Source: Kiritimatiellia bacterium (lineage in GTDB: Bacteria; Verrucomicrobiota; Kiritimatiellia; JAAZAB01). Taken from it: DNA of 64,000 nucleotides. The notes beneath the pieces are model-generated. The model saw only the letters and a program-made list of their open reading frames with translations. It did no database searches and was not told where the DNA came from. The DNA lies in the NCBI GenBank assembly GCA_041653875.1, contig JBAZEM010000003.1:34587-98586 (forward strand), in the 5' to 3' direction. Made by a program: the position numbers and the translations under genes. Shown here in pieces: positions 3,403 through 37,637 of the stretch. The number at the start of each line of letters is the position of its first letter. Position 1 is the first letter of the stretch.

Positions 3403-3410
3403 CAATCCAA

Positions 3411-3512
3411 TGTAGAGCCGGTTTTATACCGGCTATCCCATGCCGAAGATAGCCGACGTAAAGTCGGCTCTACATAAAAAAGGCGCCCCGCTTTGCGGGG
3501 CCTAACTTAATG
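3411..3512. repeat. Composite REP/BIME-like element (family A hairpin pair + family B GC hairpin)
   Basis: tgtagagccggttttataccggctat ... atagccgacgtaaagtcggctctaca, followed by ggcgccccgctttgcggggcc. Related composites at 8342-8481 and 35193-35250. Confidence 0.75.
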
Positions 3513-4422: not shown

Positions 4423-4625
4423 TGATTTAGCGATTCAGCGATTCAGCGATTGAAGCAAGGAGTCGGATCTTAAATCGCTCAATCTCTAAATCGCTTAATC
4501 ATAAATTGTTTATTCGCAAACACTTGTGTTTCCATCTGCGCTTCGAGTTGCTGGGGAGCGATTAAGCGATTCAATGATTGAAGAAAAAAGTGCTTAAATC
4601 GCTCAATCTCTAAATCGCTTAATCA
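4423..4625. terminator. Two tandem long imperfect hairpins between convergent genes (probable bidirectional terminators)
   Basis: tgatttagcgattcagcgattcagcgattgaag pairs with cttaaatcgctcaatctctaaatcgcttaatca (4469-4501). gagcgattaagcgattcaatgattgaag pairs with an exact 33-nt second copy at 4593-4625. The last copy overlaps the addA stop codon. Confidence 0.5.
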
Positions 4626-7600
4626 CTTAATTTCTTCAGCGCGTGGCAAAGCGGTGAAAAACAATACCGTTCGAATGCGCGCCGGCGGCATGCTCAGCGC
4701 CTTGGCGGTCATTTCCCGGTACGCGCCAAGCTGCGGACGGTAGCGCTCGATCTCCGACGTCAACCAGGCATCGTAATCTTGGATGGGCCGGCCGGTCTTG
4801 AAATCCACCAGGACAATATCATGGGCGGTTTTCAAGACCAGATCGATGCGACCGACACGGATAACGTTTTTATCGAAACGATCCTCGAGCGCCCATTCGG
4901 GGATCGTTTCGCGCGCGGCCGCGCGTAATGCGGTCAAGGCCGGAAATTCCCAGGCCCGCCGGCATTCGTCCAAAATTTCCTGCGCCAGCGCGCGACATTG
5001 CGCGTGAGCCAGGCCTTCGCCGGCGAGCGCCGCGGCCACCGCCGGCGGTTGCGGCATGGGTGCCTTCCGCGCCAATGTCTCGAAGATCCGATGCATGACC
5101 ACGCCCCGCGCCCTGGCATGGGGGTCGGACTCGTCGGCGCCGGAGCGCGCGGCGGCGGCGGTCTCATCCTCTATTTTCGACGGGCTCCGAATCAGATAGG
5201 GCAGGGGTTCCGGATCGAACGGCGCCGGGGCGGGTGGGAGCTTTTGGGGCTCGATGAAAGGCGCTCCGGTATGGTTCGAAACGGGGGAACCGTCTAATGT
5301 GTCATTCCGAGGAGCGTAGCGACGAGGAATCTCAGGCATCTGGTGACCGTCGGATTGAGATTCCTCGCTTCGTTCGGAATGACATGGCTCACGGGCGCCC
5401 GTTTGGGCCGGTTGCGGATTTTGAAGCGTTCGCACCGGCAAGCCCTCGAACACCCCTTCCCGGCTCATGGCGTCGAACCAGGCGATCGCCGCAGTTCTCG
5501 CCTGGGATTCTTGCGCTCCGTTGGTTTTGGGCATCAGGCCGCTCAAGGTGAGCGTCTCGCGGGCGCGCGTCGCCGCAACGTAAATCAGGCGTTTATATTC
5601 GGCCGCGTTTCGCCGAAATCCCAAATCGCTCAGGAGGAGCTGCGCCAGCGACCGGACATCCGTTCGCCGGTCCCCGGCGGCGGCGGCCAGAAATGACGGA
5701 GGACAGACAACGGACGGCGGACAACGGACGACAGGCAACGGATGACGGCCTTGCGGCAGGCGTTCCATCAGGAAGGCGGAGTCCGGCTCACGGTGCGCGG
5801 TCCGGCCGCCGGGGGCGCGGTCGAGTCCGACCACGAAGACATGGTCGAATTCCAGGCCTTTGGCCTTGTGAATGGTCATGATGGCTATGGGCGAAAATGC
5901 GGCGCGCGGATCGGGCGGCGTATAGGCGCGTTCCAGCCGCCGTTCAAAGGCGTCGAGCGTCTCCTCGCCGCGGCCTGCTGGGCATTGCGCAAGCAAATCG
6001 AGGCACCGCATGCTGTTGGCCAGTCCGGCCGGACCGTACATCCGCGCCACGGCGGCGGGTCCGCCAAGTTCCTCCCACAGGCGCTGAAGGCTGATCGCAT
6101 AGCTTTCGCGCCCGAAATCGGGCCGGATTTTGTCCAACGCGGCATTAAAACTCGAAAGCTCCGGATGGAGTTGACGGCCCGGTCCGCTGATTTTTTCGCC
6201 CCACCGCGCCGGCGCCGGCATCCCGGCCAGCTTTTCCAGCATCGCACCGGGAAGGCGGCGCCAGGGCGCCCGCAGCGCCCCGGCCCAGGCGACGTCGTCA
6301 TGCGGACGCAAGAGCGCCTTGAACAGGTTCAAGAGGTGGCGCACCTCGGGGCAATCCGGCATCGGCACGCCTTCCATCAACCGGATGGGCAGGGAGAGCG
6401 CTTCCATGGCCCTGACATAGGGCGTCAGGTGGGTGCGGGCTGGAATCAAAATCGCGACGCTGGCGGCGCGATCGGCCCGGTGCAACTCGGCCACACGGCC
6501 GGCCACGTAACGGGCCTCCTGTTCGCGCGCCTCGCCTGCCGGCGGCAGGGTCGTTTGGAAACTGTTGGCATGGCGGCAATTTCCGCCTGCGGCGGATCCG
6601 CCTTCGGCGGAAAACAAGGCCAGTGTAATCGGCATGGCCGCCGCGGCGCCGTCGCGGGCGGGTTCCGATGCGTTAAACGACACTTCGTCGAACGCCGCCT
6701 GCGGCGATCGCATAATGCGCGCAAATGCGGTGTTGGCGAATGCCACCAGGTGCGGACGCGATCGGAAGTTGGCGTTGAGCTGCAAGGCTTTCAGCGGCAA
6801 GGGCGCTTCGGCGCTGCGCTCCAGCCCGTTGGCCTGGAGCGCCTCGAAAAGGCTGACCTCGGCCCGGCGGAACCGGAAAATGGATTGCTTGGGATCGCCA
6901 ACGATGAATACGGTGCGCCCATCGTCCGGCGCCCAGCCCTCGGTCAGCGTGCTGAGAATACGGACCTGATTGTCGTTCATGTCCTGCGCCTCGTCCACGA
7001 GAATATGCCGCAGATGCTCGTGGAAGAAAATCAAACTGTCGCTTGGGCAACCCCTCTGGTTTCCACCGGCGGCGGGTCCGCCTGTGGCGGAGAAGGCCCG
7101 CAGGGCCGCCAGTTCCAGCTCCATAAAGTCCAGGCCGCGCGCGCTCATCAGCCTGCCGAAGCGTTCCAGCGCGCCCTGGGCCAGGCGCAGGCAGTCGCTT
7201 AACGCCTCGAAGCCGCCGGCGGCGCCGGTCTCTTGCCCGTCGGCTTGCCTTGGCGTCGGAGGCGCCTGCCACTCCCGCGTGAAATTTAGAATCCGGGCAA
7301 TTTCCGGCGGGAGATTGCGGATAAAATCGGCTTGGGGTGTCTTGGCGAAGTTTTGGCCGAACTCCGCGCTCTTGAATTGTTTGCGGGGCGCGCCGGACTT
7401 GACCAGAAAAACATCGGCGGCCGCTTGCCAGGCCGATACGGCGCGCAAGGTCGTTCCGGGTATCTCCTCTGACAGGGGTGTGCGTTCATCCAAATAGCGC
7501 TTCACCGCCAACCAGCTTTCTTTATGCCGGGCAAAATAATCGCGGAGCATTCCCAGGTAATGTCCGGCCAACTGTTCTGTGCGGCGCTCCAGTTCGTCTT

Positions 7601-8297
7601 TCGCAAGCGGATGCTTGAAAATATCGATCAGACCGCCCAGCCGGTCGCGCCGCGCCAGGAGATCGGCAAGTTGATTGGAAATGACACGGACGCTGTTGTT
7701 GGCCACCGCCATTCTGCGCTGGAATGCGGCGATTTCCGCCGGATCCAGCCGGGAATCGCCCGCGGCAAAAGCATGCACATATTCGGCCACGGCTTCGTCG
7801 ATCAGGGCCGCTTGGCCGATTTCGTCAAGCAGTGCCCCGACTCTCCGAGAGGTTTGGGCGGGCGGCGTTCGGGCTTCCAGCGGCCAGTTTCGGGCAACCC
7901 GTCCGCAGAAACCATGAAAAGTATCCACCAAGAAAGCGTCCGGGCTCCGCAGCAGGATGTCCCAATCCGGGTGGGCCTTAATCGCATTGCGGGCCAGTTC
8001 CAGCAGGCGGGCTTCCCACGAACCGGGCGGGGCGGCGCAGGTGTCGTCTTGCGCCTGGCGCAGGGTCCGCGTAATACGATCCGCCATTTCGGCGGCCGCT
8101 TTGCGCGTAAAGGTGACGGCCAGAATTTGGCGCGGATGCCTGACATCGGCAAGCAGGGCCAGAAAGCGGGCGGTCAACAATGCCGTCTTGCCGGAGCCGG
8201 CGGGCGCTTCCAGGACGAAACTTCGGCGCGGGTCCAGCGCTTCCCGGCGAACCTGAATGTCCGGCGCCTGGGATTTTTTATTGCGGTCAATGTTCAT
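4623..8297 (-). CDS. addA: ATP-dependent helicase/nuclease subunit A (UvrD/Rep helicase + C-terminal PD-(D/E)XK nuclease)
   Basis: Helicase motifs EAPAGSGKTALLTARF (Walker A), ILVDEAQDMNDNQ, FIVGDPKQSIFRFRRAE, TIHKAKGLEFDHVFVVG and YVAATRARETLTLSG. C-terminal nuclease GRIDLVLKTAHDIVLVDFKTG...YRPQLGAYREM. Sits downstream of addB on the same strand. Confidence 0.9.
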   Translation of the reverse strand: MNIDRNKKSQAPDIQVRREALDPRRSFVLEAPAGSGKTALLTARFLALLADVRHPRQILAVTFTRKAAAEMADRITRTLRQAQDDTCAAPPGSWEARLLELARNAIKAHPDWDILLRSPDAFLVDTFHGFCGRVARNWPLEARTPPAQTSRRVGALLDEIGQAALIDEAVAEYVHAFAAGDSRLDPAEIAAFQRRMAVANNSVRVISNQLADLLARRDRLGGLIDIFKHPLAKDELERRTEQLAGHYLGMLRDYFARHKESWLAVKRYLDERTPLSEEIPGTTLRAVSAWQAAADVFLVKSGAPRKQFKSAEFGQNFAKTPQADFIRNLPPEIARILNFTREWQAPPTPRQADGQETGAAGGFEALSDCLRLAQGALERFGRLMSARGLDFMELELAALRAFSATGGPAAGGNQRGCPSDSLIFFHEHLRHILVDEAQDMNDNQVRILSTLTEGWAPDDGRTVFIVGDPKQSIFRFRRAEVSLFEALQANGLERSAEAPLPLKALQLNANFRSRPHLVAFANTAFARIMRSPQAAFDEVSFNASEPARDGAAAAMPITLALFSAEGGSAAGGNCRHANSFQTTLPPAGEAREQEARYVAGRVAELHRADRAASVAILIPARTHLTPYVRAMEALSLPIRLMEGVPMPDCPEVRHLLNLFKALLRPHDDVAWAGALRAPWRRLPGAMLEKLAGMPAPARWGEKISGPGRQLHPELSSFNAALDKIRPDFGRESYAISLQRLWEELGGPAAVARMYGPAGLANSMRCLDLLAQCPAGRGEETLDAFERRLERAYTPPDPRAAFSPIAIMTIHKAKGLEFDHVFVVGLDRAPGGRTAHREPDSAFLMERLPQGRHPLPVVRCPPSVVCPPSFLAAAAGDRRTDVRSLAQLLLSDLGFRRNAAEYKRLIYVAATRARETLTLSGLMPKTNGAQESQARTAAIAWFDAMSREGVFEGLPVRTLQNPQPAQTGAREPCHSERSEESQSDGHQMPEIPRRYAPRNDTLDGSPVSNHTGAPFIEPQKLPPAPAPFDPEPLPYLIRSPSKIEDETAAAARSGADESDPHARARGVVMHRIFETLARKAPMPQPPAVAAALAGEGLAHAQCRALAQEILDECRRAWEFPALTALRAAARETIPEWALEDRFDKNVIRVGRIDLVLKTAHDIVLVDFKTGRPIQDYDAWLTSEIERYRPQLGAYREMTAKALSMPPARIRTVLFFTALPRAEEIK
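5301..5383. repeat. Family E long palindrome embedded in frame in addA
   Basis: gtcattccgaggagcgtagcgacgaggaatctc ... gagattcctcgcttcgttcggaatgac. A half-copy lies at 11511-11540 (gtcatcccgagcgaagtcgagggatctgaa). Confidence 0.75.
5697..5749. repeat. Family F low-complexity 'cggacg/gacgacag' word repeat embedded in addA
   Basis: gacggaggacagacaacggacggcggacaacggacgacaggcaacggatgacgg. Related word strings lie at 11549-11597 (opposite orientation) and 54303-54345. Confidence 0.5.
6582..6611. repeat. Family D mini-palindrome embedded in frame in addA
   Basis: tccgcctgcggcggatccgccttcggcgga. Translated on the addA strand as ...AEGGSAAGGN... Confidence 0.7.
7062..7091. repeat. Family D mini-palindrome (degenerate first unit) embedded in frame in addA
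   Basis: tccaccggcggcgggtccgcctgtggcgga. Translated as ...ATGGPAAGGN... Confidence 0.6.
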
Positions 8298-8341
8298 AGT
8301 GCATGGCCAATTTATATGTGGTTGTCATTTCAATCCTTAAA

Positions 8342-8481
8342 TTAAGTCCCGCAAAGCGGGGCGACTTTTCATGTAGAGCCGACTTTATGTCGGCTATCTT
8401 CGGACAGAATAGCCGGTATAAAACCGGCTCTACCCGGATTGAAATTCCTATACATTAAGTTAGGCCCCGCAAAACGGGGCA
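8342..8481. repeat. Composite REP/BIME-like element (B hairpin - A hairpin pair - B hairpin) in the addB-addA spacer
   Basis: ttaagtcccgcaaagcggggcg; gtagagccgactttatgtcggctat ... atagccggtataaaaccggctctac; ttaagttaggccccgcaaaacggggc. Confidence 0.75.
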
Positions 8482-8672
8482 TCTTTCGCAACTGAGATTA
8501 GCCGCAAAAATGCACAAAAAGCACAAGAAGGAACCAAACAGTCAAATCTTTTTTGTGTCTCTTGCGCCTCTTTGCGGCAACTTTGTCATGCCATAGGCAA
8601 ATCCGCCTCCCGCCGTCGCATAAAGCTATGGCGGGCAGGCTGGCGGAAATTTCCCATGCATTAAATGGACTC

Positions 8673-11477
8673 TTATCCGTCCTCGCTATCGTCCTCCGGC
8701 TGGCCATGCCGGTCGAAAAACCCGCACAAGTTGAAAAACTCGCAAAACCGGCAGGCCCCGGCCCGCGCATGGAATATTGCGGGACTTCCCGGGCGAGGGT
8801 CGGCCTCGAAGCGCCCCTGGCGCGGGGCTTCCACGCGTTGCGCCAGCGCCGTTTCCCATTGCGGCAAAACTTCGCTCCAGTTGACGGGATTGCGCCGGTA
8901 ACTGAGCGGGGCGACTTGCACGTCCTCCGCCTTTCCCAGGCAAATGTATCCAGCCTGCATCGGCCCTTCGGCGGTATCCTGGAGTCCTTCAATAAGTCCC
9001 CGCTGTAATGCAAGCAAGTAGGCCGGCAATTGCAGTTCCGTTACATGGTCGATTACGGATGCCGCGGTGGGCGCGGCTCCGGACTTGTAATCCCAGACGG
9101 CGAAGCCTTCGGAAGCATGCCGGTCGATCCGATCGATCCGGCCGCGCAGAATAAGCCCGGCCACCGCAAGGCCGGTGAACGGCGCTTCGGTCGAGGCAAA
9201 CCGCCAGCCGGCGCGCGCGCGTTCCCGCTCCTGATCGAGCCAGGCCGGCAATATGCCCGGCATTTCCGAATCGCCCAGCAGCCGGAGCCGCTCCACGTGC
9301 CAGAAAACATTGTCCGGACAATGCGAGAATTCATGTGCGACGGCTTGTTCGAGCCAGATGCGGGCGCTGTGGCCGTCTTCAGGCCAGCCGGGCGCGTGGC
9401 CGGACAAACCATCCGCAAACGTTTTCAAGATGCCGTGCAGGACCTTGCCGCGCATCCGCGGATCGATGCCCTCATCGGCCAGGGCCAGCGGCTCCAATTT
9501 GAGCAGACGTTTGCAAAAAAACTGGAACGGGCATCCCGCCAGGTCCTCGACCGCCGTCACACTCCATTCCGCGGCCAACGGCGCGGCCGACATTTCGGAC
9601 TGGCGAGGCGGCTTAATACTGCCGCGATCAGTGAGCGCGAGATATCCGTCCCGCAGCCAGCGCGCCCGCATCCATTCCGCCGTCGGGTTTTCCCAGAGAT
9701 TGTAGGCTGTCTGAACCGGGTTGCCGTCGGCGCCGGCCTCGTCGGGCAAAAGGGCGCAGGGCGCATACGGCGTTTGCTCGTCGCCTTCCGCGGCGCGGCT
9801 GACATGGATCCGCGGCGCGGCGGCCATGAGCGCCGCCAAACGCCGTTTGCCTTGCTCCCATTGCCGCTCAATGGTACCGCCCGCCAGAAGCCGTTGCTCG
9901 TCCGGGTCCAGGAACGGCCATTCCTGCGCGGGCGGCAAAAGGGCCGCGTCGTGGGCGCCGACCAACCACAGATAGTCAAAGGCCAAACCGCGCGCCTCGT
10001 CCGGATCAAGGATCTGGATGCCGGCGGTTTCCGGTGTTTTTTCGGCGACAATAATTTTTTCGGCGGCCGTGGAAAGCCAGGCTATGGCGGAAGAAGCGTT
10101 CACGACGGTCGCGCCAGCCTCCCGCGCCAATTGACGGACGATCTCTTCCAAATGCTGATGGGCCAAGGCGTCGGCGGAGCGGTGCCGGCCTTCATATCGG
10201 CAAAAACCCAAGGCGCTCAGGCACGCCTGGGCGCCATTCAACCAATCGGCCAATGGCGCCGTTTGACGGTCGGTCAAGCGTTGGAAGTCCGCCATGAGAT
10301 AGCCCCGATCGGCCAAGGCCTTAAACGCTTCCTTTAGCGACAGGACCCGCTCCGGTTCCCAGAGTGCGGCGCGCAGGTCGTCCGCCGTCCGGGGTTCCGG
10401 TTTCCGGATATAAGGCGACACGAGCAGTGAAGTTAACAGCGGCACGGGATTGGGTTCGTCCGAGAGGCGCAGAGGGATAATCGCAGTTTGAAAAAGCGGG
10501 TGCTCGATGAGCGGAGTGCCGATCGAAAGGTTGTAGCGGATCGCATGTTCGAAGTCCGGTCGTTCCAATCCCGCCAGTTCGTCGAAACAGCGCTTGAGCA
10601 GGGGGAAACAGGACTGATCGGCAAAAACAACCGCCAGTTTCTTTTCGCCGCCGTTCCAGGCGCGCAAGACATCGGCGCAAACTGCGCGGCATTCCTGTTC
10701 CGGGGTGGCATACAGGCGGACACGCGCCGCCGGGCCGGGTTCGACCTCGGAACGCCAAAGCGCGGTCTTGCTCCTCACGGCCAAAGCGTCGCAAAGCGAT
10801 CGTTCGAGCGGCGCCACATTGTCAAGACCCGCCAAAATCGCATGTTGCGGAATAGTCGCGCGCCCGTCGGTGACGGCTGCGCTTACGGCCCGAACCATGT
10901 CGCGCCAGAGCGCAACGCCTTCGCGCTCGATGAGCGCCAGAAAACGGGCGGTAACCTCGCGCCGGAATCCGGCCAAGGGGTGCTCGCCGGCGCCTCCAAC
11001 CGGATCCAGACCGCTCTCCAGCAGGGCATCCAGCGAAGTTTGCAATTGGGCATAGAGCGCCGGTTGCGCAATCAACCCCTCGGGCATGGACACACCCCGC
11101 GCGGCTTCGTGCCAAAGTTGCAGCGACAAGGCCGGGGAGAGTGGGCGGCGCGGCGGCCAGAGCGCGGCATAGGTTTCACGAACCCATCCGCGCAACGAGT
11201 GCGCCGGCGGCGTTTCCCAGCCGCTTGTAGCCTTGGCTATGTGCTCCTGGCGATAGCGGTGCAATAGCCGCCGCGCCAGGCGCGCCGTGGCGCACAACAC
11301 CAGGGCGCCCTCCGCCGCCGCCCCAATCGCGGCGCGCTCGAACTCGCCGGCGGAGGAAAAGAGCCGCGTTTCCCCCCGCCAGCCCGCATCCGCCGGTATG
11401 CCTTCGCGTGTTGCCATGCCGTAAAAATAGCACGCATCAGGGGGTGGCAACAAGTCTCCATCCTGGTTTGTCGGCAA
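8673..11477 (-). CDS. addB: ATP-dependent helicase/nuclease subunit B-like (inactivated helicase + RecB-type nuclease with Fe-S Cys cluster)
   Basis: C-terminal LRGRIDRIDRHASEGFAVWDYKSG ... LQLPAYLLAL. Cys pattern CPFQFFC ... CRFCEFFNLC, as in AddB iron-sulfur nuclease domains. Synteny with addA. An alternative start is the Met of MATREG at 11417. Confidence 0.85.
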   Translation of the reverse strand: MPTNQDGDLLPPPDACYFYGMATREGIPADAGWRGETRLFSSAGEFERAAIGAAAEGALVLCATARLARRLLHRYRQEHIAKATSGWETPPAHSLRGWVRETYAALWPPRRPLSPALSLQLWHEAARGVSMPEGLIAQPALYAQLQTSLDALLESGLDPVGGAGEHPLAGFRREVTARFLALIEREGVALWRDMVRAVSAAVTDGRATIPQHAILAGLDNVAPLERSLCDALAVRSKTALWRSEVEPGPAARVRLYATPEQECRAVCADVLRAWNGGEKKLAVVFADQSCFPLLKRCFDELAGLERPDFEHAIRYNLSIGTPLIEHPLFQTAIIPLRLSDEPNPVPLLTSLLVSPYIRKPEPRTADDLRAALWEPERVLSLKEAFKALADRGYLMADFQRLTDRQTAPLADWLNGAQACLSALGFCRYEGRHRSADALAHQHLEEIVRQLAREAGATVVNASSAIAWLSTAAEKIIVAEKTPETAGIQILDPDEARGLAFDYLWLVGAHDAALLPPAQEWPFLDPDEQRLLAGGTIERQWEQGKRRLAALMAAAPRIHVSRAAEGDEQTPYAPCALLPDEAGADGNPVQTAYNLWENPTAEWMRARWLRDGYLALTDRGSIKPPRQSEMSAAPLAAEWSVTAVEDLAGCPFQFFCKRLLKLEPLALADEGIDPRMRGKVLHGILKTFADGLSGHAPGWPEDGHSARIWLEQAVAHEFSHCPDNVFWHVERLRLLGDSEMPGILPAWLDQERERARAGWRFASTEAPFTGLAVAGLILRGRIDRIDRHASEGFAVWDYKSGAAPTAASVIDHVTELQLPAYLLALQRGLIEGLQDTAEGPMQAGYICLGKAEDVQVAPLSYRRNPVNWSEVLPQWETALAQRVEAPRQGRFEADPRPGSPAIFHARAGACRFCEFFNLCGFFDRHGQPEDDSEDG

Positions 11478-11510
11478 TTCTCATTATGGCATTCCGTCAT
11501 CGGCGAACAT

Positions 11511-11597
11511 GTCATCCCGAGCGAAGTCGAGGGATCTGAATTTTCTCCGGTCTGTCGTCCGGCGTCCGTCCTCTGTCGTCCGTCTTCCGGCGTCCGC
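11511..11597. repeat. Family E half-site followed by family F word repeat
   Basis: gtcatcccgagcgaagtcgagggatctgaa, then ggtctgtcgtccggcgtccgtcctctgtcgtccgtcttccggcgtccgc. Confidence 0.5.
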
Positions 11598-12126
11598 TTC
11601 CCGCCTCTTTCAACTGGCAATTCCGAACACGCCTTGCTACATTCAAAACCGTTGGGCACACGCAAACGGGGCATTCCTGCAAATCGTGCTGTGGGATGAC
11701 AGGGACATGAAACATCGATCGGCACACTGCCGGGACTAAAGCAATGGCCTGGAGTAGAGTGGGGCGCGTATGACGGATTCACAATCATCGAGATTGACCG
11801 GGTGCTGGCGGGGCACGATGGATTCACACCCAAATCCTCGCCTAAGCACCCTTGTGAATGGCGAGATAGTTGATGCGGACCCTTGTGGCAGCGGTCCAGC
11901 CGGCCGTTGTCGCGCCGAAGCGGCGCTATGCCGTGCCGCGAAGGCGGAAGGCTGGGCGCTACCCAAAGACATCCATGGACTGTATAGGGCTTCAGGTAGG
12001 GCTCGACTGCCTGCCCGCCATAGCCCCGGGCGACGGCGGATCCCTGCCGAGCCCTGGAATTAGGGCATCGCCTGATAACCGCAAGAACGTTTTGTCTTAG
12101 GCGAGGATTTGGTCACACCGGAGGAG

Positions 12127-12155
12127 TTGGACTTCATAATCAATTATGATATAAA
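12127..12155 (+). promoter_or_regulatory. Putative sigma70-type promoter with a 7-2-7 palindromic operator in the spacer
   Basis: TTGGAC (12127-12132), a 17-nt spacer, then TATAAA (12150-12155). The spacer contains the perfect palindrome tcataat-ca-attatga (12134-12149). It lies ~90 nt upstream of ATG 12245. Confidence 0.35.
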
Positions 12156-12244
12156 GCGACGCACGGGTTTGGATGGCGGAGAGGATGCGGGCCCGAAGCG
12201 AACGAATAATGTGGAAACACAAAGGGATTTGTAGGGAGCTAACG

Positions 12245-13366
12245 ATGCCCGAACTGGATTATATTACAGTCAAGGGCTTCAAGAGCATTGCCTCAGTGGA
12301 AAAACTGGCTCTGAAGCCGGTCAATGTAATCATTGGCCCAAACGGCTCCGGCAAGTCCAACTTCATAGGTGTTTTTGCGTTCCTCCATGCCATGCGTGAA
12401 GGCCGCCTGCAGGATTATGTTGCCCAGGCCGGCGGTGCGGATAAACTTCTGCACTTTGGGGCGAAGGTGACTCCCGGAATGAAGATTCTTATATCGTTCC
12501 AAGACGAGAAGAACCAATACGAGATAACGTTAAAGTCGACTGAGACCGACACGCTTTTTCCATCCGAGGAACTCGTCTATTATTGGGATAAGGCCGCTTA
12601 CCCGAAAGGACCGATGGGCCGCGGTCTTTCAAGAATTGGCAACGAAGCCGGCATTAGTCAGGATTCAAGTGACCGAATAGCCGGTTGGGTGCGTAAGCGT
12701 CTGGGAAGCTGGCGGGTATATCATTTCCATGACACAAGCGCTTCTTCTCCAATGAAGAAGACTGCGGACCTTAACGACAACCGATTTCTTCGGCCTGATG
12801 GTTCGAACCTGTCCTCTTTCCTCTACTACCTTCGGACAAAGCGAAAGGATTCCTATGCGCTTATCCGTAGCACAGTTCAGAGGGTAACGCCATTCTTTGA
12901 TGATTTTCAATTGGAGCCGTCGAAACTCAGTCCCGACAAGATGCGTTTGGAGTGGAAACACAAGAACTCTGACAAATATTTTGATGCGTCTTCTCTGTCG
13001 GATGGCACACTCCGCTTCATGGCCTTGGCAACGTTGTTTCTTCAACCGGAGCTGTATCGCCCATCCGTCATATTGATAGACGAACCTGAACTTGGACTCC
13101 ATCCCTACGCTATCGCGATGCTGGCTTCACTTGTCAAGATGGCATCGGAGAAGACGCAGGTGATTGTCTCCACGCAATCGCCCATGCTTCTCGACCACTT
13201 TACCCCTGAAGATGTTCTTGTGACTAATCGTGTGGCAGGAGGCACGCGATTTGAGCGATTGGATTCACAAAAACTCGCTTCCTGGTTGGAGGATTATAGT
13301 TTGGGTCAGTTGTGGGAGAAGAACGAGTTTGGAGGACGTCCATCCGGGGCGGGGGATAAAAGATGA
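12245..13366 (+). CDS. ABC/SMC-head-type ATPase (AAA_15/AAA_21-like)
   Basis: Walker A GPNGSGKSN, signature-like LSDGTLRF, Walker B/D-loop VILIDEPELGLHP, then VSTQSP. A GGGAG Shine-Dalgarno lies 6 nt before ATG 12245 (the track ORF starts at 12173). G+C is visibly lower than the flanks. Confidence 0.88.
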   Translation: MPELDYITVKGFKSIASVEKLALKPVNVIIGPNGSGKSNFIGVFAFLHAMREGRLQDYVAQAGGADKLLHFGAKVTPGMKILISFQDEKNQYEITLKSTETDTLFPSEELVYYWDKAAYPKGPMGRGLSRIGNEAGISQDSSDRIAGWVRKRLGSWRVYHFHDTSASSPMKKTADLNDNRFLRPDGSNLSSFLYYLRTKRKDSYALIRSTVQRVTPFFDDFQLEPSKLSPDKMRLEWKHKNSDKYFDASSLSDGTLRFMALATLFLQPELYRPSVILIDEPELGLHPYAIAMLASLVKMASEKTQVIVSTQSPMLLDHFTPEDVLVTNRVAGGTRFERLDSQKLASWLEDYSLGQLWEKNEFGGRPSGAGDKR

Positions 13367-14073
13367 AGCGGCTCCTAATCCATGTAGAGGGAGAAACGGA
13401 AGAAGACTTTGTGAACTATGTGCTTGCCCCGCATCTTTACGATAAAGGTTACGAAACCGTTGGGGCTAGACTCGTTGGCAATGCCCGGCTTCGTCAACGT
13501 CGTGGCGGGATCCGGGCATGGTCTTCCGTGCGGGCAGACATTGTGAAGCACTTGCGTGAGGACCAAGGCTCCGTTGCGACAACAATGGTGGACTACTATG
13601 CGTTGCCCAGTACCGGCGAAAAAGCATGGCCGGGGCGCGATGAGGCTGGGCGTCTTCAATTCGATCGCAAAGCGGACACCGTTGAACAGGCCTTGCAGGC
13701 GGACCTGACGGCGTTCATGGGTGTTGACTTCGATCAGCGAAAGTTCATTCCGTTCGTCATTATGCATGAGTTCGAAGGCCTGCTTTTCAGCGACTGTGCG
13801 GCGTTCAGTCGTGGTATTTACCGCCCGGAACTGCAGGCCGATTTTCAAGTCATTCGTGATGCGTTCAAAACACCGGAAGAGATTAACGATTCCCCGGTTA
13901 CATCGCCGTCGAAACGAGTGCTCGCTATCATTCCGAATTATGAGAAACCTCTGTTGGGAACCTTGGCCGTTCTGGCCATTGGGCTCGACAACATCCGGGG
14001 CGCGTGTCCGCATTTTAGCGACTGGGTTACTCGATTGGAAAGAGCCACAATAGGACCAAACATGGCCTTATGA
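13363..14073 (+). CDS. DUF4276-like protein (possible TOPRIM-like effector)
   Basis: N-terminal strand plus acidic motif LLIHVEGETEEDF. Central FVIMHEFEGLLF, which is the conserved FE motif I associate with DUF4276. Its ATG overlaps the ATPase stop (ATGA at 13363-13366). Confidence 0.8.
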   Translation: MKRLLIHVEGETEEDFVNYVLAPHLYDKGYETVGARLVGNARLRQRRGGIRAWSSVRADIVKHLREDQGSVATTMVDYYALPSTGEKAWPGRDEAGRLQFDRKADTVEQALQADLTAFMGVDFDQRKFIPFVIMHEFEGLLFSDCAAFSRGIYRPELQADFQVIRDAFKTPEEINDSPVTSPSKRVLAIIPNYEKPLLGTLAVLAIGLDNIRGACPHFSDWVTRLERATIGPNMAL

Positions 14074-14301
14074 TGAATAACCCAATAACGCGAAATGACC
14101 CAATTAATGACGCAATCATTGGCTGTCGCAATGAATGGGCCTATGACCTGCGATGCGATTGATCGGGTATTGGCGAAATGCTGCCCGCTTTTCCACCCAA
14201 TGCGCGCTGAATTTGCTTGCCGGAACGGGGCGAATCCTTAACAATATCCGAGTGCAGTCGGGCAAACAATCTGCCGGCATTCCGATCGCTGGGCGTGTCA
14301 C

Positions 14302-15303
14302 ATGAAAAAACGGATCGATCTCAAGGGGCGCAGTCTGCTGAAAATCTCCGATCTGTCGGATGACGAATTGATCTACCTGCTGGATTTGGCGGACCGCCTG
14401 AAGCTCAAAAAGAAAAGGGGCGTGCGCGGCAATCTCCTGGCGCGCAAAAACATCGCGCTGATTTTCGAAAAGGCGTCCACCCGCACGCGCTCGGCTTTCA
14501 CCGTGGCCGCCGTGGACGAGGGCGGCAGTGTGGAATTCCTGGGCATGCACGATATTCATCTGGGCAAGAAGGAATCCATCAAGGACTCCGCCCGTGTGCT
14601 GGGCCGCATGTTCGACGCCATCCAGTTTCGGGGCTTCGCGCAAGCCACGGCGGAAAGCCTGGCGCAGCATTCCGGGGTGCCGGTCTGGAATGGGTTGACG
14701 GACGACGCGCATCCCACGCAGGCCCTGGCAGACCTGATGACCATCCGCGAGCATTTCCACCGCCTGAAAGGCCTGAAGGTGGTGTATCTGGGCGATGGCC
14801 GCAACAACGTGTGCCTTTCGCTCATGATGGGGTGCGCCAAGACGGGCGCCCATTTCGTGGATTGCACGCCGCGGGAGCTTGCGCCCGCCCCGGCGCGTTT
14901 GGAAGAAGCTCGCGCTGTGGCGCGCCGGAACGCCTGCACGGTGACGGTGGAGCCGGATCCGGCCAAGGCCGTGGCCGGCGCCCAGGTTGTTTACACGGAC
15001 GTCTGGGTCTCCATGGGCGAGGAATCCAAGTTCGACGAGCGCTTGCGGCTCCTGAAACCATACCAGGTCAACATGGACCTTATCCGGCAAACCGGCAATA
15101 CGGCGCGGGACGGCGTGATTTTCCTGCATTGCCTGCCGGCCTTCCATAACCACGAGACGGAGCTGACCCGCAAACTGGGCGCGCTGGAAGTCACGGACGA
15201 AGTGTTCGAGGCGCCGTTTTCAAAGGTTTTCGACCAGGCCGAGAATCGGATGCATACCATCAAGGCCTTGATGGTGGCGACCCTGACGGGATGCAAGGGG
15301 TAA
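14302..15303 (+). CDS. argF: Ornithine carbamoyltransferase
   Basis: STRTRSAF carbamoyl-phosphate motif, HPTQALADLMTI, FLHCLPAFH. About 333 aa, as in ArgF/ArgI. Confidence 0.92.
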   Translation: MKKRIDLKGRSLLKISDLSDDELIYLLDLADRLKLKKKRGVRGNLLARKNIALIFEKASTRTRSAFTVAAVDEGGSVEFLGMHDIHLGKKESIKDSARVLGRMFDAIQFRGFAQATAESLAQHSGVPVWNGLTDDAHPTQALADLMTIREHFHRLKGLKVVYLGDGRNNVCLSLMMGCAKTGAHFVDCTPRELAPAPARLEEARAVARRNACTVTVEPDPAKAVAGAQVVYTDVWVSMGEESKFDERLRLLKPYQVNMDLIRQTGNTARDGVIFLHCLPAFHNHETELTRKLGALEVTDEVFEAPFSKVFDQAENRMHTIKALMVATLTGCKG

Positions 15304-15448: not shown

Positions 15449-16531
15449 ATGAGTTCAACCATGCGCACGCTGGCGGAAATGGAATGGGACGACCTGCAGC
15501 GCCTGGGGCCGCTGGAGAAGGCCGAGTGCTTCAATTTGGCGGGCCGTCCTTTCCATGTGCTGATGGCCCAGCAGTTTACGCGGCCGCTCCTGGAGGAACT
15601 GGGCGCGATGGCCACGCGCATCCGCCAGATTGCCAAGAGCAAAGCCGGCATGGATTTCCTGCGCGGCCTGCTTGCGCATCGGACGGCGATGCTCTATTTC
15701 TCGCAGCCCAGCACGCGCACGTTTCTCTCCTTTCATTCCGCCTGCCAGATCCTGGGCATGAAAACGGTCGAAGTGCGCGACACCTCCACCTCCAGCGAAA
15801 TGAAAGGTGAGACCCAGGAGGACTCCATCCGCACGTTCAGCTCGTTCGCCGATGTCATCATCATGCGCAGCGCCGTCGGCGGGCTGGCGGAAAAAATGGC
15901 CTGGGTGCTTTCCAACACCGAACGGCCCGTGCCGATCGTCAGCGCCGGCTCCGGCAAGGACCAGCACCCGACCCAGGCCCTGCTCGATATTTACACCCTC
16001 CAGCGCAGTTTCGAAACGCGCGGCGGCATCGACCGCAAGAAAGTGGTGTTCGTGGGCGACCTCGCCCGGGGCCGCACGGTGCGCTCGCTCGCTTTCCTGC
16101 TGACCCGCTACCAGGGCGTCAAACAATACTTTATTGCGCCGCCGCAACTGCAGATCAAGGACGATATCCTCGATCTTTTGCGCGCGGCGCGCGTCGAGTT
16201 CGAAGTCGGCGACGATTTCGAGAAAGTTATCCCGCAAGCCGACGCCATCTACATGACGCGCATCCAGGACGAGTGGGACGAGAACAAGGGCGACAGCGGC
16301 AAGATCGACGTTTCCAAATTCGCTTTTACGGCCGAGCATCTCAAACTGCTTCCGCCGCAGGCCGTGATCATGCACCCCTTGCCCCGCCGCCTGGAAATCG
16401 CCGTCGAGGTTGACCGCGATCCGCGCGCCGTCTATTGGCGCCAGGTGCGCAACGGCATGTGGGTTCGCGTGGCCCTGCTGGCCGCCATCTTCGAGTGCTT
16501 CGACGCCGTGCGCGAGTTCCCAGTCGCCTGA
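15449..16531 (+). CDS. pyrB: Aspartate carbamoyltransferase catalytic chain (with ~40-aa N-terminal extension)
   Basis: SQPSTRTFLSF, HPTQALLDIYTL, IMHPLPR. No pyrI is adjacent. Confidence 0.85.
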   Translation: MSSTMRTLAEMEWDDLQRLGPLEKAECFNLAGRPFHVLMAQQFTRPLLEELGAMATRIRQIAKSKAGMDFLRGLLAHRTAMLYFSQPSTRTFLSFHSACQILGMKTVEVRDTSTSSEMKGETQEDSIRTFSSFADVIIMRSAVGGLAEKMAWVLSNTERPVPIVSAGSGKDQHPTQALLDIYTLQRSFETRGGIDRKKVVFVGDLARGRTVRSLAFLLTRYQGVKQYFIAPPQLQIKDDILDLLRAARVEFEVGDDFEKVIPQADAIYMTRIQDEWDENKGDSGKIDVSKFAFTAEHLKLLPPQAVIMHPLPRRLEIAVEVDRDPRAVYWRQVRNGMWVRVALLAAIFECFDAVREFPVA

Positions 16532-17689: not shown

Positions 17690-18754
17690 ATGACCACGGA
17701 CGAACACACCAAAGTTATTGTGAGCGTTGACGTGGAGGACTGGTATCACGGGCCGACCATGTCCGCCCGCTGGGATTCGCGCAACTCGCTGGATAAACTG
17801 CTCGCCGCCAACCCCGGCATCGAGCGGGCCTGTTCTTATATCGACATTGTCCTCGAACTGCTGGAACGCCGGCGCGTCAAGGCGACTTTTTTCTGGGTCG
17901 CCGAGTATGCCCGGCGGTTTCCGGCGCTTTTCGCGCGGGTCGCCGCCGCGGGGCATGAGATCGCCTGCCACGGCCTGACGCATTTCTCCAAGCTCGATTA
18001 CCGCACCAAGCAGGCCGTCTTCAGTCCGCGGGAATTCAAGGCGCGCGCCTTGACCGCCCGGAAAATCCTGGAAGACATGTCCGGCCGGCCGGTTCGCGGT
18101 TACCGGGCGCCGAACGCCTATGTGTCGGGCGCCATGCTCGACGCCCTCGAGGAAACCGGCTTCACCTACGATTCCTCCGTGTCGGTCAGCTCGATCTACA
18201 ATAAGACCGATTCCAGTCTGGCGGGCGTGACGAGCGCGCCTTATTATCCCGCGCCCGGCGAATTGCGCGCAAGCAACCAGTCGCGCAGCTTGGTCGAATT
18301 TCCGTGGCCGTATTATTCGGCCGCCGGAGTGAAAATCCAGAGCGCCGGCGGGCCGTATCTGCGTTTTTTCGGCAGCGGCCTGATTATCCGCGGCCTGCGG
18401 CAGTCCCTGCGCCGGGGACACGCGGTGTTCTATTTCCATCCCATCGATCTCTGCAACGAGTCCATTCCCATGCGTTTTTCGCCGCGCCGTCCTTTTTTGT
18501 GGCTTTTCAAGGGCGACCTTGTCAAACGGCGCGTCGAACGGGTGCTGGACACGTTCCCAAATCGGACCGCTTGCTTCGGGCAAATTATGGAAGAGCAAAA
18601 AAATGAATTAGGCCTTCGAGCTATGCCGTTCTATCGAACGGCCACTACACCGGACGGCCTGTCTGAACTCGGCCAGGGGTGTAGTTGCGGTTCGATAGAA
18701 CCGCTGTGTTTTGTCCACCGTAGGCAGGGCCGCCTCCGTCGAAAAATAATTTAA
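17690..18754 (+). CDS. Polysaccharide deacetylase family protein (DUF3473-type), with a repeat-encoded C-terminal tail
   Basis: VSVDVEDWYH, HEIACHGLTH, GYRAPN. The last ~50 codons run through the family C REP (18625-18704) before the first stop. Confidence 0.82.
   Translation: MTTDEHTKVIVSVDVEDWYHGPTMSARWDSRNSLDKLLAANPGIERACSYIDIVLELLERRRVKATFFWVAEYARRFPALFARVAAAGHEIACHGLTHFSKLDYRTKQAVFSPREFKARALTARKILEDMSGRPVRGYRAPNAYVSGAMLDALEETGFTYDSSVSVSSIYNKTDSSLAGVTSAPYYPAPGELRASNQSRSLVEFPWPYYSAAGVKIQSAGGPYLRFFGSGLIIRGLRQSLRRGHAVFYFHPIDLCNESIPMRFSPRRPFLWLFKGDLVKRRVERVLDTFPNRTACFGQIMEEQKNELGLRAMPFYRTATTPDGLSELGQGCSCGSIEPLCFVHRRQGRLRRKII
18625..18704. repeat. Family C REP pair
   Basis: gccgttctatcgaacggccactacac ... 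ggtgtagttgcggttcgatagaaccgc. Relatives at 27251-27330 and 33327-33385. Confidence 0.75.
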
Positions 18755-27250: not shown

Positions 27251-27330
27251 TCCACCGTAGGCGGACAAGTCGAACCGCAGCTACACCCGTTCGGTGTAGT
27301 CGCCGTTCGATAGAACGGCATCGTTGCCGA
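27251..27330. repeat. Family C REP pair
   Basis: tccaccgtaggcggacaagtcgaaccgcagctacaccc ... ggtgtagtcgccgttcgatagaacggc. Confidence 0.65.
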
Positions 27331-33294: not shown

Positions 33295-33442
33295 CCGGCG
33301 GCAATATGGGTCACTATTTGGGGGGGGGTGTAGATGCGGTTCGATAGAACCGCGGATTGCCGTTCTATCGAACGGCCACTACACCTCAGCCCGCGACCGC
33401 ATTAGGTTGCCCGCCCCCCATTTACTGACCCATTACCGGCGG
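33295..33442. repeat. Large composite palindrome (outer arms enclosing a family C REP pair) in a divergent promoter region
   Basis: Outer arms ccggcggcaatatgggtcactatttggggggg / ccccccatttactgacccattaccggcgg. Core ggtgtagatgcggttcgatagaaccgc ... gccgttctatcgaacggccactacacc. Confidence 0.75.
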
Positions 33443-35191: not shown

Positions 35192-36103
35192 CTATAGCCG
35201 ACGTAAAGCCGGCTCTACATTCTTGGTGGAGCCGGTTTTATACCGGCTAAGTTTTTTCCCGGCGCCCGTCAGCGCCCTGATCCGCGCAATCACGGCCTGC
35301 GTGGTCGTCTCGGGCGTCGAGGCGCCCGCCGTGATGCCCAGCGAACGAACGTTCCTGAACCAGCGGGAATCGAGCTCCTCCGGCGATTGAATCCAATGCG
35401 CGCGCGCATTCAGGGCTTTGGCGATCTCGTAGAGCCGTTTGGTGTTGGCGCTCGTGCGCGATCCGATGATCAGGATGGCGTCGTTTTGCAGGGGGAGCGT
35501 TTTGATTTCCTCCTGTTTCATGCGCGTCGGCTTGCAAATCGTATTGAAAAAGCGCGCGTCGGCAATCCGGGCCTTCAGCCGTTCCACGATGGGCAGAACC
35601 CGGTCCAGGTTCTGGGTGGATTGCACCACGATGGCCGCCTTGCGCACCCTCCGCAGAGCCTTCCAGGGAATATGCCCGGCATGCTCGATGATCACGGCCC
35701 GGCGCGCAATCTGGCCGATAATGCCCAGCACCTCGTCGTGGCGGCGGTCGCCGATAACGATCACACGCCGCCCCTGGCGGTCCATGGCGCGAACGATCCG
35801 GTGAATTTCGCGCACCATCGGGCAGGTGGCGTCCACGATGGCATAACCGTGGCGGCGGGCCAGCGCCAGGGTCCGGCGGGACGCGCCGTGCGCGCGGATG
35901 AGCAGTTTGGCGTTGAGGCCCGCTCCCAGGCGCTTTATTTTCCGGATGCCGGCCGCCTCCAGTTCCCGGATCACCGCTTCGTTGTGCACCAGATCGCCGA
36001 GCATGCAGACGGGTTTGCGCGCGGAAGCCAGGTCCCGCGCGATCCTGATCGCGCGCCGCACCCCGAAACAAAACCCCGCCGATTTGGCCAGATGAATTTG
36101 CAT
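35192..36103 (-). CDS. ispH: 4-hydroxy-3-methylbut-2-enyl diphosphate reductase
   Basis: AKSAGFCFGVRRAI, LGDLVHNEAV, DATCPMV, SANTKRL. The likely start is MQIHLAK at 36103. The last ~20 codons are encoded by the family A REP. Confidence 0.9.
   Translation of the reverse strand: MQIHLAKSAGFCFGVRRAIRIARDLASARKPVCMLGDLVHNEAVIRELEAAGIRKIKRLGAGLNAKLLIRAHGASRRTLALARRHGYAIVDATCPMVREIHRIVRAMDRQGRRVIVIGDRRHDEVLGIIGQIARRAVIIEHAGHIPWKALRRVRKAAIVVQSTQNLDRVLPIVERLKARIADARFFNTICKPTRMKQEEIKTLPLQNDAILIIGSRTSANTKRLYEIAKALNARAHWIQSPEELDSRWFRNVRSLGITAGASTPETTTQAVIARIRALTGAGKKLSRYKTGSTKNVEPALRRL
35193..35250. repeat. Family A REP pair (units in swapped order)
   Basis: atagccgacgtaaagccggctctaca ... gagccggttttataccggcta. 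Confidence 0.7.
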
Positions 36104-37413: not shown

Positions 37414-37637
37414 AACAACTCGGAAGGTAGTCAGGAGTCAGAATTCAGGATACAGAATAAAATACGCAAGAATCGGAAGAACGCGACAGACATTCCGCCA
37501 AGGCCTTGTGTTTAGCGCCGATTCTCTTCGTATTCGCTTGGCCTATACGGGTTCCTTATTCTGACTACCTGCCCGCAGTGCTGTGCACAGCGTTGCAGGC
37601 GGGCTGACTCCTGAATTCTGACTCCTGAGCAGTTACA
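37414..37637 (+). repeat. Copy 2 of the ~225-bp structured element
   Basis: Same orientation and near-identical sequence to 1745-1969. It ends 15 nt before ATG 37653, with AGGAGG between the element and the start codon. Confidence 0.85.

Follow-up and report, generated by a model that had tools for sequence, protein, structure and literature searches.

HEC-01 ("Hma-embedded candidate 1") is a candidate anti-phage system in which, according to its description in 2024 (Payne et al., bioRxiv 10.1101/2024.01.29.577857), a TOPRIM protein accompanies an ABC ATPase, and it was still handled as unvalidated in a 2026 wastewater study. A pair drawn from the same two Pfam families, in the same order, is formed by Mad3 and Mad4 of MADS, an eight-gene methylation-associated system. 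Mad4 is a DUF4276 protein, and DUF4276 has been placed in the Toprim superfamily (Menshen paper, PMC12065111); "MADS3-4" has also been added to the list of ABC ATPase plus TOPRIM systems (PARIS paper, PMC11464382). Both genes matter for MADS defense, which was reduced by deletion of mad3 or mad4, and loss of the methylase gene mad5 was possible only when mad2 or mad3 was deleted too (MADS preprint). Here we analyze a two-gene cassette of this kind from a Kiritimatiellia bacterium. It lies in a stretch of 64,000 nucleotides (GenBank assembly GCA_041653875.1, contig JBAZEM010000003.1, positions 34,587 to 98,586 of the forward strand; hereafter, the window), between addB and a gene of the ornithine carbamoyltransferase (OTCase) family, and has the following parts.

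12165–12244, plus strand: cassette leader, the 5′ limit of DNA homology with the nearest relative, L087 (83.8% identity, blastn)
12245–13366, plus strand: gene 1, HEC-01A, a 373 aa SMC-head-type ABC ATPase without coiled coil
13363–13366, plus strand: ATGA start/stop overlap, translational coupling, read from the sequence
13363–14073, plus strand: gene 2, HEC-01B, a 236 aa DUF4276 protein, putative divergent Toprim-like metal-dependent nuclease
14075–14116, plus strand: short conserved tail, the 3′ limit of the cassette (85.7% identity over 42 nt to L087 4511–4552)

As judged from its sequence, the cassette is a copy of the already catalogued candidate system HEC-01, because the two corresponding PADLOC profiles are matched end to end. 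Gene 1 matches HEC-01A (PDLC04175) at 3.1e-140 and 465 bits, with residues 3–366 on profile positions 5–362 of 363, and gene 2 matches HEC-01B (PDLC04188) at 4.3e-70 and 234 bits, with residues 1–228 on positions 12–226 of 230. Other PADLOC models score far weaker with gene 1: generic AriA (which is the AAA_21 profile) 7e-32, mad3 4.8e-27, AbiLi 4e-25, NsnB 4e-22, and Old 5e-19. The two components of HEC-01 are to be adjacent and on one strand, and here they overlap by ATGA, an overlap that the initial annotation of this DNA had already read correctly. The same annotation regarded the pair as a possibly undescribed system. This no longer stands, given the full-length profile matches, two published tests of HEC-01, and the deletions studied in mad3 and mad4. 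Gene order, strand, tight coupling, and the description as ABC ATPase plus TOPRIM-like protein are all shared with HEC-01. The family was defined from copies embedded in Hma systems, whereas the present one is solo; the two are otherwise indistinguishable.

The ATG at 12245 is the most likely start of gene 1, preferred over a second in-frame ATG upstream, at 12173, because a ribosome-binding site, AGGGAG, stands ahead of it within the leader (12233–12238), alignments with homologs begin at residues 1–4, and the public gene call agrees. The protein matches the Pfam families AAA_21 (7e-34), SMC_N (1.9e-16), AAA_15 (7e-15), and also ABC_tran, and carries the complete set of motifs listed below, whose conservation was scored in 40 homologs of each protein.

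12335–12358, plus strand: Walker A, GPNGSGKS, invariant in the gene 1 homologs
12995–13009, plus strand: ABC signature, LSDGT, invariant in the gene 1 homologs
13067–13090, plus strand: VILIDEPE, invariant in the gene 1 homologs
13067–13105, plus strand: Walker B/D-loop, VILIDEPELGLHP
13169–13183, plus strand: STQSP, with Gln311 at the usual H-loop position

The Walker B with its D-loop, ILIDEPELGLHP, is as invariant as GPNGSGKS and LSDGT. The switch histidine of the H-loop is absent: approximately 31 residues past Walker B, the sequence reads S-T-Q-S-P with an invariant Gln311, an assignment made by position alone. Loss of the H-loop histidine slows hydrolysis in ABC ATPases. A Gln at this place suggests, from the sequence, an ATP-binding, nucleotide-gated switch and not a fast motor. 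The AlphaFold2 model of gene 1 has a mean predicted local distance difference test score (pLDDT) of 83.5. Foldseek matches it to 852 PDB chains at E ≤ 1e-3, mostly SMC, Rad50, PtuA, and OLD; the best is the SMC head 4i99 (E = 1.9e-14, template modeling (TM) scores 0.61/0.69), and others include PtuA of Septu and of retrons and Rad50, at E values of about 1e-13 to 1e-14, and the Thermus (Ts) OLD nuclease (6p74, E = 1.3e-12). The model thus indicates a compact SMC-head-type ABC ATPase with no coiled-coil insertion.

Gene 2 covers the whole Pfam DUF4276 profile (4.6e-45, positions 1–192 of 192). The families given to the two genes in the initial annotation, ABC/SMC-head ATPase and DUF4276, are therefore both right, and the motifs it quoted are all present and invariant in the 40 homologs of each protein. 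The conservation of individual gene 2 residues was scored over 109 diverse members of the DUF4276 family, and the most telling positions are the following.

13381–13404, plus strand: HVEGETEE, invariant in the 40 gene 2 homologs, containing Glu9 (94% conserved), which follows β1
13591–13593, plus strand: Asp77 (96% conserved)
13765–13776, plus strand: HEFE, that is, His135-Glu136-x-Glu138 (88%, 98%, and 98% conserved), invariant in the 40 gene 2 homologs
13945–13947, plus strand: Lys195 (94% conserved)

Glu13 (92%) and Glu172 (96%) are conserved to a similar extent. In the AlphaFold2 model of gene 2 (pLDDT 88.8, predicted TM score 0.86), the core alternates strands and helices (β1 3–8, α1 11–26, β2 32–37, α2 53–66, β3 71–77) and is followed by helices, a short fourth strand near 127–133, and then a helical C-terminal half. 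The conserved acidic residues stand at strand ends. This layout, as modeled, is that of a Toprim-like metal-dependent phosphotransferase, though without the canonical DxD. Toprim domains have a conserved Glu at the end of β1, and Glu9 occupies that place in gene 2. In agreement with this, hhalign aligns LLIHVEGETEE of gene 2 with the Toprim β1 motif LLVEGETE of E. coli YbjD. With deeper profiles, the gene 2 family and the OLD/YbjD Toprim align collinearly over 170 columns (E = 8e-4, score 30.1), approximately 5 standard deviations above column-shuffled controls (15.1 ± 3.0, maximum 23.1). A permissive Pfam scan of 40 DUF4276 members matched OLD-like_TOPRIM (PF20469) in 1 of them, weakly (E = 0.2). 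A divergent Toprim-like nuclease is the best reading of the DUF4276 protein; it is moderately supported, not proven, and it agrees with the two published assignments.

Relatives of gene 2 are abundant. There are 3,773 at E ≤ 1e-5 in a protein collection clustered at 90%, and in a library clustered at 50% there are 3,317 clusters at E ≤ 1e-3 and 2,178 at E ≤ 1e-10. A scan of one genome per species finds a close relative in at least 518 of 185,579 species genomes, and the counts of linkage and context given hereafter refer to the best 80 of these loci. These 80 proteins are 61–69% identical to gene 2 and come from many phyla, including Myxococcota, Desulfobacterota, Verrucomicrobiota, Planctomycetota, Acidobacteriota, and Chloroflexota, as well as from Betaproteobacteria. 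In 79 of the 80 loci, a homolog of gene 1 (57–77% identical) is found directly upstream on the same strand, the one exception lying at a contig edge. The distance from the gene 1 stop to the gene 2 start could be measured in 77 loci and is between -8 and +6 nt in 76 of them, with a mode of +4. This adjacency and the tight junction indicate that the pair is an obligate, translationally coupled unit; the co-occurrence proposed in the initial annotation is essentially obligate, the two genes keeping together in hundreds of genomes from many phyla. The invariance of residues of catalytic type and the identity of 61–74% that both proteins retain across phyla indicate strong purifying selection on an activity. 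Among 72,556 plasmids, 13 carry the pair, each time beside an AAA ATPase gene, and one of these carriers is small (an Acinetobacter plasmid of 10,958 bp). Two of the related loci hold disrupted copies: in a Bryobacterales genome (L061, about 7267–10000), an insertion of approximately 2.7 kb separates the homologs of HEC-01A and HEC-01B, and in a Verrucomicrobiae genome (L027, about 9747–10000), the ATPase gene is interrupted.

The base composition of the cassette is clearly foreign, as the initial annotation had seen in its low GC content. The GC content of 12165–14116 is 0.515, against a window mean of 0.600 (standard deviation 0.032). When a sliding window of 1.95 kb is moved over the 64 kb, the lowest stretch falls in the cassette, where it reaches 0.512, and no sliding window outside it is as low. 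The GC content at third codon positions (GC3) is 0.55 and 0.57 in the two genes, against 0.72–0.83 in eight neighboring genes. The second-lowest region, near 53.7 kb, was considered as a further islet and rejected, since it encodes LepA and a signal peptidase, which are housekeeping proteins.

The borders of the cassette were delimited by comparison with its nearest relative, in the Kiritimatiellia metagenome-assembled genome (MAG) L087 (JAUSOX010000553.1). The DNA is 91.4% identical over 12165–14048 (blastn), and beyond this the two share just the 42 nt tail at 14075–14116. There is no DNA homology upstream of 12165 or past 14116, where the flanks are unrelated; homology thus stops no more than 80 bp ahead of the two genes and about 45 bp past them. 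Because L087 shares only the pair with short borders, the moving unit is a bare two-gene cassette. The sequence comparison accordingly indicates that the ~1.95 kb of 12165–14116 is a horizontally acquired, stand-alone cassette. Around it, there are no convincing direct repeats or att-like sites, no terminal repeats, and no integrase or transposase gene nearby. A search of metagenome contigs with an AddB probe for a cassette-free addB/OTCase site returned only proteins of ~30% identity. In L087 itself (203–2593), a different AAA_15/AAA_21 ATPase gene (396 aa) directly precedes the HEC-01 pair and is flanked by small open reading frames (ORFs) devoid of Pfam matches (111 aa on its upstream side, 186 and 87 aa on its downstream side); this region may be another ABC-ATPase-based defense cassette stacked beside HEC-01.

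The long noncoding stretches noted around the pair in the initial annotation are real: the upstream spacer measures 767 bp to the ATG at 12245 (695 bp to that at 12173), and the downstream one 228 bp. The upstream length is explained by the divergent addB upstream region, by copies of genome-wide repeats, and by the insertion of a 283 bp element resembling a miniature inverted-repeat transposable element (MITE). The promoter-like signal attributed to the pair did not hold up. The candidate TTGGAC-N17-TATAAA at 12127–12155 matches the consensus hexamers at 3/6 and 5/6 positions and falls outside the part conserved with the closest relative, and a promoter scan found 2 sites when 2.0 were expected from shuffled sequence. 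The terminator scan, judged in the same way, gave nothing beyond shuffle expectation, and a scan of 11300–14500 with Rfam at E ≤ 1 gave no RNA family.

The MITE-like element (within 11824–12118) has perfect 17 nt inverted repeats, CCAAATCCTCGCCTAAG at 11830–11846 and its complement at 12096–12112, and is flanked by the 6 bp direct repeat TCACAC (11824–11829 and 12113–12118), the signature of a target-site duplication. It is present as a single copy in the window, folds at -143.9 kcal/mol (z = -5.7 versus shuffles), and has no Rfam match; an ORF of 81–97 aa inside it has no Pfam match. It is not part of HEC-01, because the 91% identical cassette does not share it.

The genes around the cassette are of an ordinary kind. 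On one flank lie addA and addB, encoding a UvrD-type helicase with a PD-(D/E)XK nuclease and a PD-(D/E)XK protein. On the other lie two carbamoyltransferase genes, a GT2 glycosyltransferase, and a polysaccharide deacetylase. The gene directly downstream had been annotated as argF; the first gene there is indeed of the carbamoyltransferase family, but there are two in tandem (14302–15303 and 15449–16531), both aspartate/ornithine carbamoyltransferase-family genes with OTCace_N and OTCace domains, of which the one at 15449–16531 is the more divergent (E about 1e-28 to 1e-30). None of the 80 other loci has AddA, AddB, or an OTCase beside the pair. A functional link with AddAB was therefore rejected, and the adjacency is coincidental, as the initial annotation had allowed.

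Clustering of the flanking ORFs found a single recurrent context. In 10–11 of the 80 loci, or about 1 in 7, the order is hsdM-(YhcG/DUF1016)-hsdS-[HEC-01A-HEC-01B]-hsdR-radC, on one strand and with minimal gaps, that is, the pair is embedded in a type I restriction-modification (R-M) operon. These loci come from Verrucomicrobiota, Planctomycetota, Nitrospirota, Betaproteobacteria, and one deltaproteobacterial MAG. Among 119 other immediate neighbors, defense genes are a minority. They include a type II restriction endonuclease, type IIG enzymes, DrmD, SoFic, BrxH, mad2/3/8-like genes, and other AAA_21 ATPases. Many of the neighbors are housekeeping genes, such as those for tRNA synthetases, asparagine synthase, GlgB, DNA polymerase III alpha, and NADH dehydrogenase subunits. 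Most of the 80 loci, like the cassette described here, are solo among housekeeping genes, with no adjoining R-M or MADS gene.

Comparison with other systems places the pair near, but outside, several described groups. The likeness to the OLD, PARIS, and AbiL associations of ATPase and TOPRIM, pointed out in the initial annotation, is also drawn by Payne et al. and in the PARIS (PMC11464382) and Menshen (PMC12065111) papers. In MADS, Mad3/Mad4 lie inside the larger system, whereas the cassette has no mad1, mad2, or mad5–8 nearby. Gene 1 scores 111.5 bits with the NCBIfam MAD3 equivalog, below its cut-off of 420 bits, and the mandatory MAD6–8 are not among the neighbors. PARIS is likewise a two-gene system with an ABC ATPase of AAA_15/21 type and a separate small Toprim-family effector, and its proposed logic is that the ATPase scaffold senses the phage anti-restriction protein Ocr and releases the nuclease. 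However, its effector AriB is a DUF4435 protein and that of the cassette a DUF4276 protein. None of 40 DUF4276 members matches DUF4435 even at E up to 10, and PADLOC gives no AriB. AriA measures 53–55 kDa, against 373 aa or about 42 kDa for the cassette ATPase, and the AriA-specific PADLOC models score far below HEC-01A. PARIS is also often borne by phages or satellites, whereas the present family has no match in 50,697 phage records.

The OLD family (P2 Old, E. coli YbjD, Gabija GajA) shares the ABC ATPase fold with gene 1, and YbjD shares with gene 2 the Toprim β1 motif h-h-V-E-G-E-T-E within the collinear alignment. In OLD proteins, the ATPase and the Toprim are fused in one polypeptide, whereas they are separate ORFs in the cassette and in 79 of the 80 loci. 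The DxD of YbjD reads VDGD where gene 2 has D-Y-Y, and the H-E-x-E after β4 and the C-terminal helical region are specific to DUF4276. PrrC and RloC are anticodon nucleases of ABC-ATPase type tied to type I R-M, and the prrC position, between hsdS and hsdR, is the one occupied by the pair in ~1/7 of the loci. According to PMC2610378, the R-M partner keeps PrrC silent, and a phage anti-restriction factor turns it on. By analogy, the prrC-like position of the pair suggests a similar guard role. PrrC differs in being a single protein with another nuclease domain, and the present cassette has no R-M neighbors; tRNA cleavage, the activity of PrrC, is not known from any DUF4276 protein.

The cassette is probably best understood as a solo, horizontally acquired copy of HEC-01 and a candidate defense system in which an ATPase sensor controls a DUF4276 nuclease. 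The ATPase and the DUF4276 protein would form a complex, with the former as nucleotide-dependent sensor or scaffold and the latter as a divergent Toprim-like metal-dependent nuclease. The active site predicted for this nuclease comprises Glu9 (after β1), Asp77 (after β3), and His135/Glu136/Glu138 (after β4). On infection, or when foreign DNA enters the cell, the ATPase would sense a trigger and thereby release or activate the nuclease, which may then cut nucleic acid of the invader or of the host (DNA or tRNA) and stop either the invader or the infected cell. Such a logic would be that of OLD, PARIS, and PrrC. What sets the system off may be a disturbance of restriction or modification, a plausible trigger in view of the embedding between hsdS and hsdR and of the Mad3/Mad5 genetics.

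Several observations weigh against this reading. We infer complex formation, the trigger, and the substrate alike. The nuclease assignment of gene 2 meets with difficulties at the level of both sequence and structure: the Toprim DxD after β3 is replaced by Asp77-Tyr78-Tyr79, where the second Asp is missing; the hhalign probability for DUF4276 versus the OLD/YbjD Toprim is just 24%; and shuffles of blocks that keep VEGETE equal the real score in 3 of 40 trials, so that most of the hhalign signal comes from that single motif. The structural check proposed in the initial annotation did not reveal a nuclease fold, as Foldseek with the gene 2 model gives nothing at E ≤ 1e-3 in PDB (best E = 0.024, TM ≤ 0.33) or in BFVD, and PDB chains searched with the sequence and the profile of gene 2 give no match. 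The copy described here is not within a defense island, as housekeeping genes flank it on both sides, and most immediate neighbors in other genomes are housekeeping too. None of 50,697 phage records carries the pair. The experimental record is also mixed. One HEC-01 representative gave zero protection in E. coli against the phages tested (bioRxiv 10.1101/2024.01.29.577857). Another, from cold-seep microbes and cloned in E. coli B, protected against at least one of T4, T5, and T7 (2026, PMC12881386), in a single spot assay with no quantification or mutants.

Other explanations can be given of the same facts. As the main alternative, the pair could lack autonomy and be an accessory effector of methylation-based restriction (type I R-M, or MADS/Hma) that functions only beside such a partner, in which case the solo copy would be an inert orphan or act in trans with an R-M system located elsewhere in the genome. 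Several facts fit this view: in about 1 locus in 7 the pair stands between hsdS and hsdR, oriented like them and tightly spaced; the family was discovered as an Hma insert; MADS needs Mad3/Mad4; loss of mad3 allows deletion of the mad5 methylase; and HEC-01 cloned alone failed to protect in the assays of Payne et al. We nevertheless consider it unlikely, since most of the 80 loci, the window included, have no adjoining R-M or MADS gene, the 91% identical relative shares only the two genes (so the pair moves alone), cloned HEC-01 reportedly protected E. coli B by itself, and both ORFs are intact with conserved motifs, unlike a decaying orphan. A bolder reading, about as doubtful, would make HEC-01 a guard in the style of PrrC or PARIS. 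The ATPase would keep watch over a complex of type I R-M or of another methylation-based system, or over the anti-restriction proteins that attack it, and unleash a noncanonical Toprim nuclease with an E...D...H-E-x-E site in place of E...DxD. The Gln of the H-loop would then make a slow, ATP-gated switch, and solo copies would act in trans or autonomously.

A minimal two-gene cassette of foreign composition, with a patchy distribution across phyla, unrelated insertion sites, a presence on small plasmids (such as that of Acinetobacter), and no phage phenotype in one heterologous test, also calls to mind a selfish module of addiction or toxin-antitoxin type, or a neutral hitchhiker, maintained by horizontal transfer and post-segregational effects and devoid of real anti-phage benefit. 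This seems improbable: proteins conserved across phyla with invariant residues of catalytic type speak of strong purifying selection, the pair recurs inside R-M operons, and there are positive phage data for one HEC-01 and for Mad3/Mad4; moreover, addiction and defense are compatible with each other. Lastly, the position directly beside addB and the structural closeness of the ATPase to SMC and Rad50 heads might evoke housekeeping DNA repair or chromosome maintenance with AddAB, on the model of an SMC/RecN-type ATPase with a partner nuclease. Such a role is highly improbable, as the neighborhood with AddA, AddB, or OTCase is seen at none of the 80 other loci, the pair is foreign to this genome by its GC and GC3, the 373 aa ATPase has no coiled-coil insertion, and its best profiles are defense-system models, the NCBIfam RecF and SMC models scoring far under their cut-offs.

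The window contains other repeats and small elements. The frame of addA (4623–8297, minus strand) holds three in-frame palindromic repeats (5290–5385, 6579–6614, and 7059–7094), which are also found in intergenic positions of the window. One of them, a hairpin whose arms measure about 35 nt, encodes CHSERSEESQSDGHQMPEIPRRYAPRNDT, and a half-copy of its family lies at 11508–11536, in the spacer between addB and HEC-01. SAEGGSAAGGN and SATGGPAAGGN are encoded by the remaining two, which are GC-rich palindromes. We take these repeats to resemble the in-frame palindromic elements of Rickettsia. A repeat of 203 nt occurs twice (1753–1955 and 37425–37627, 97% identity); it has inverted repeats, internal or terminal (TCAGGAGTCAGAATTCAGGATACAG), and probably represents a further small mobile element or one of the repetitive extragenic palindromic (REP) type. 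Finally, there are families of short intergenic hairpin repeats, at 3409–3480, 8366–8486, and 35194–35249, and at 18623–18704, 27287–27321, and 33320–33393, exemplified by GTAGAGCCGGTTTTATACCGGCTAT and ATGCCGTTCTATCGAACGGCCACTACACC. They often occur as back-to-back inverted pairs past convergent or terminal gene ends, and look like REP-like elements or shared terminators.

By itself, the locus contributes little, being another copy of a very common cassette, with nothing beyond hundreds of others. It is the family that is noteworthy, as HEC-01 ranks with the most abundant candidate systems of environmental bacteria and the experiments on it contradict each other, with one negative and one positive result. 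Its effector would be a Toprim-like domain without the canonical DxD. Two features offer handles for the characterization of HEC-01, namely that the moving unit is the bare pair of genes, and that approximately 1 in 7 copies sit at the position of prrC.

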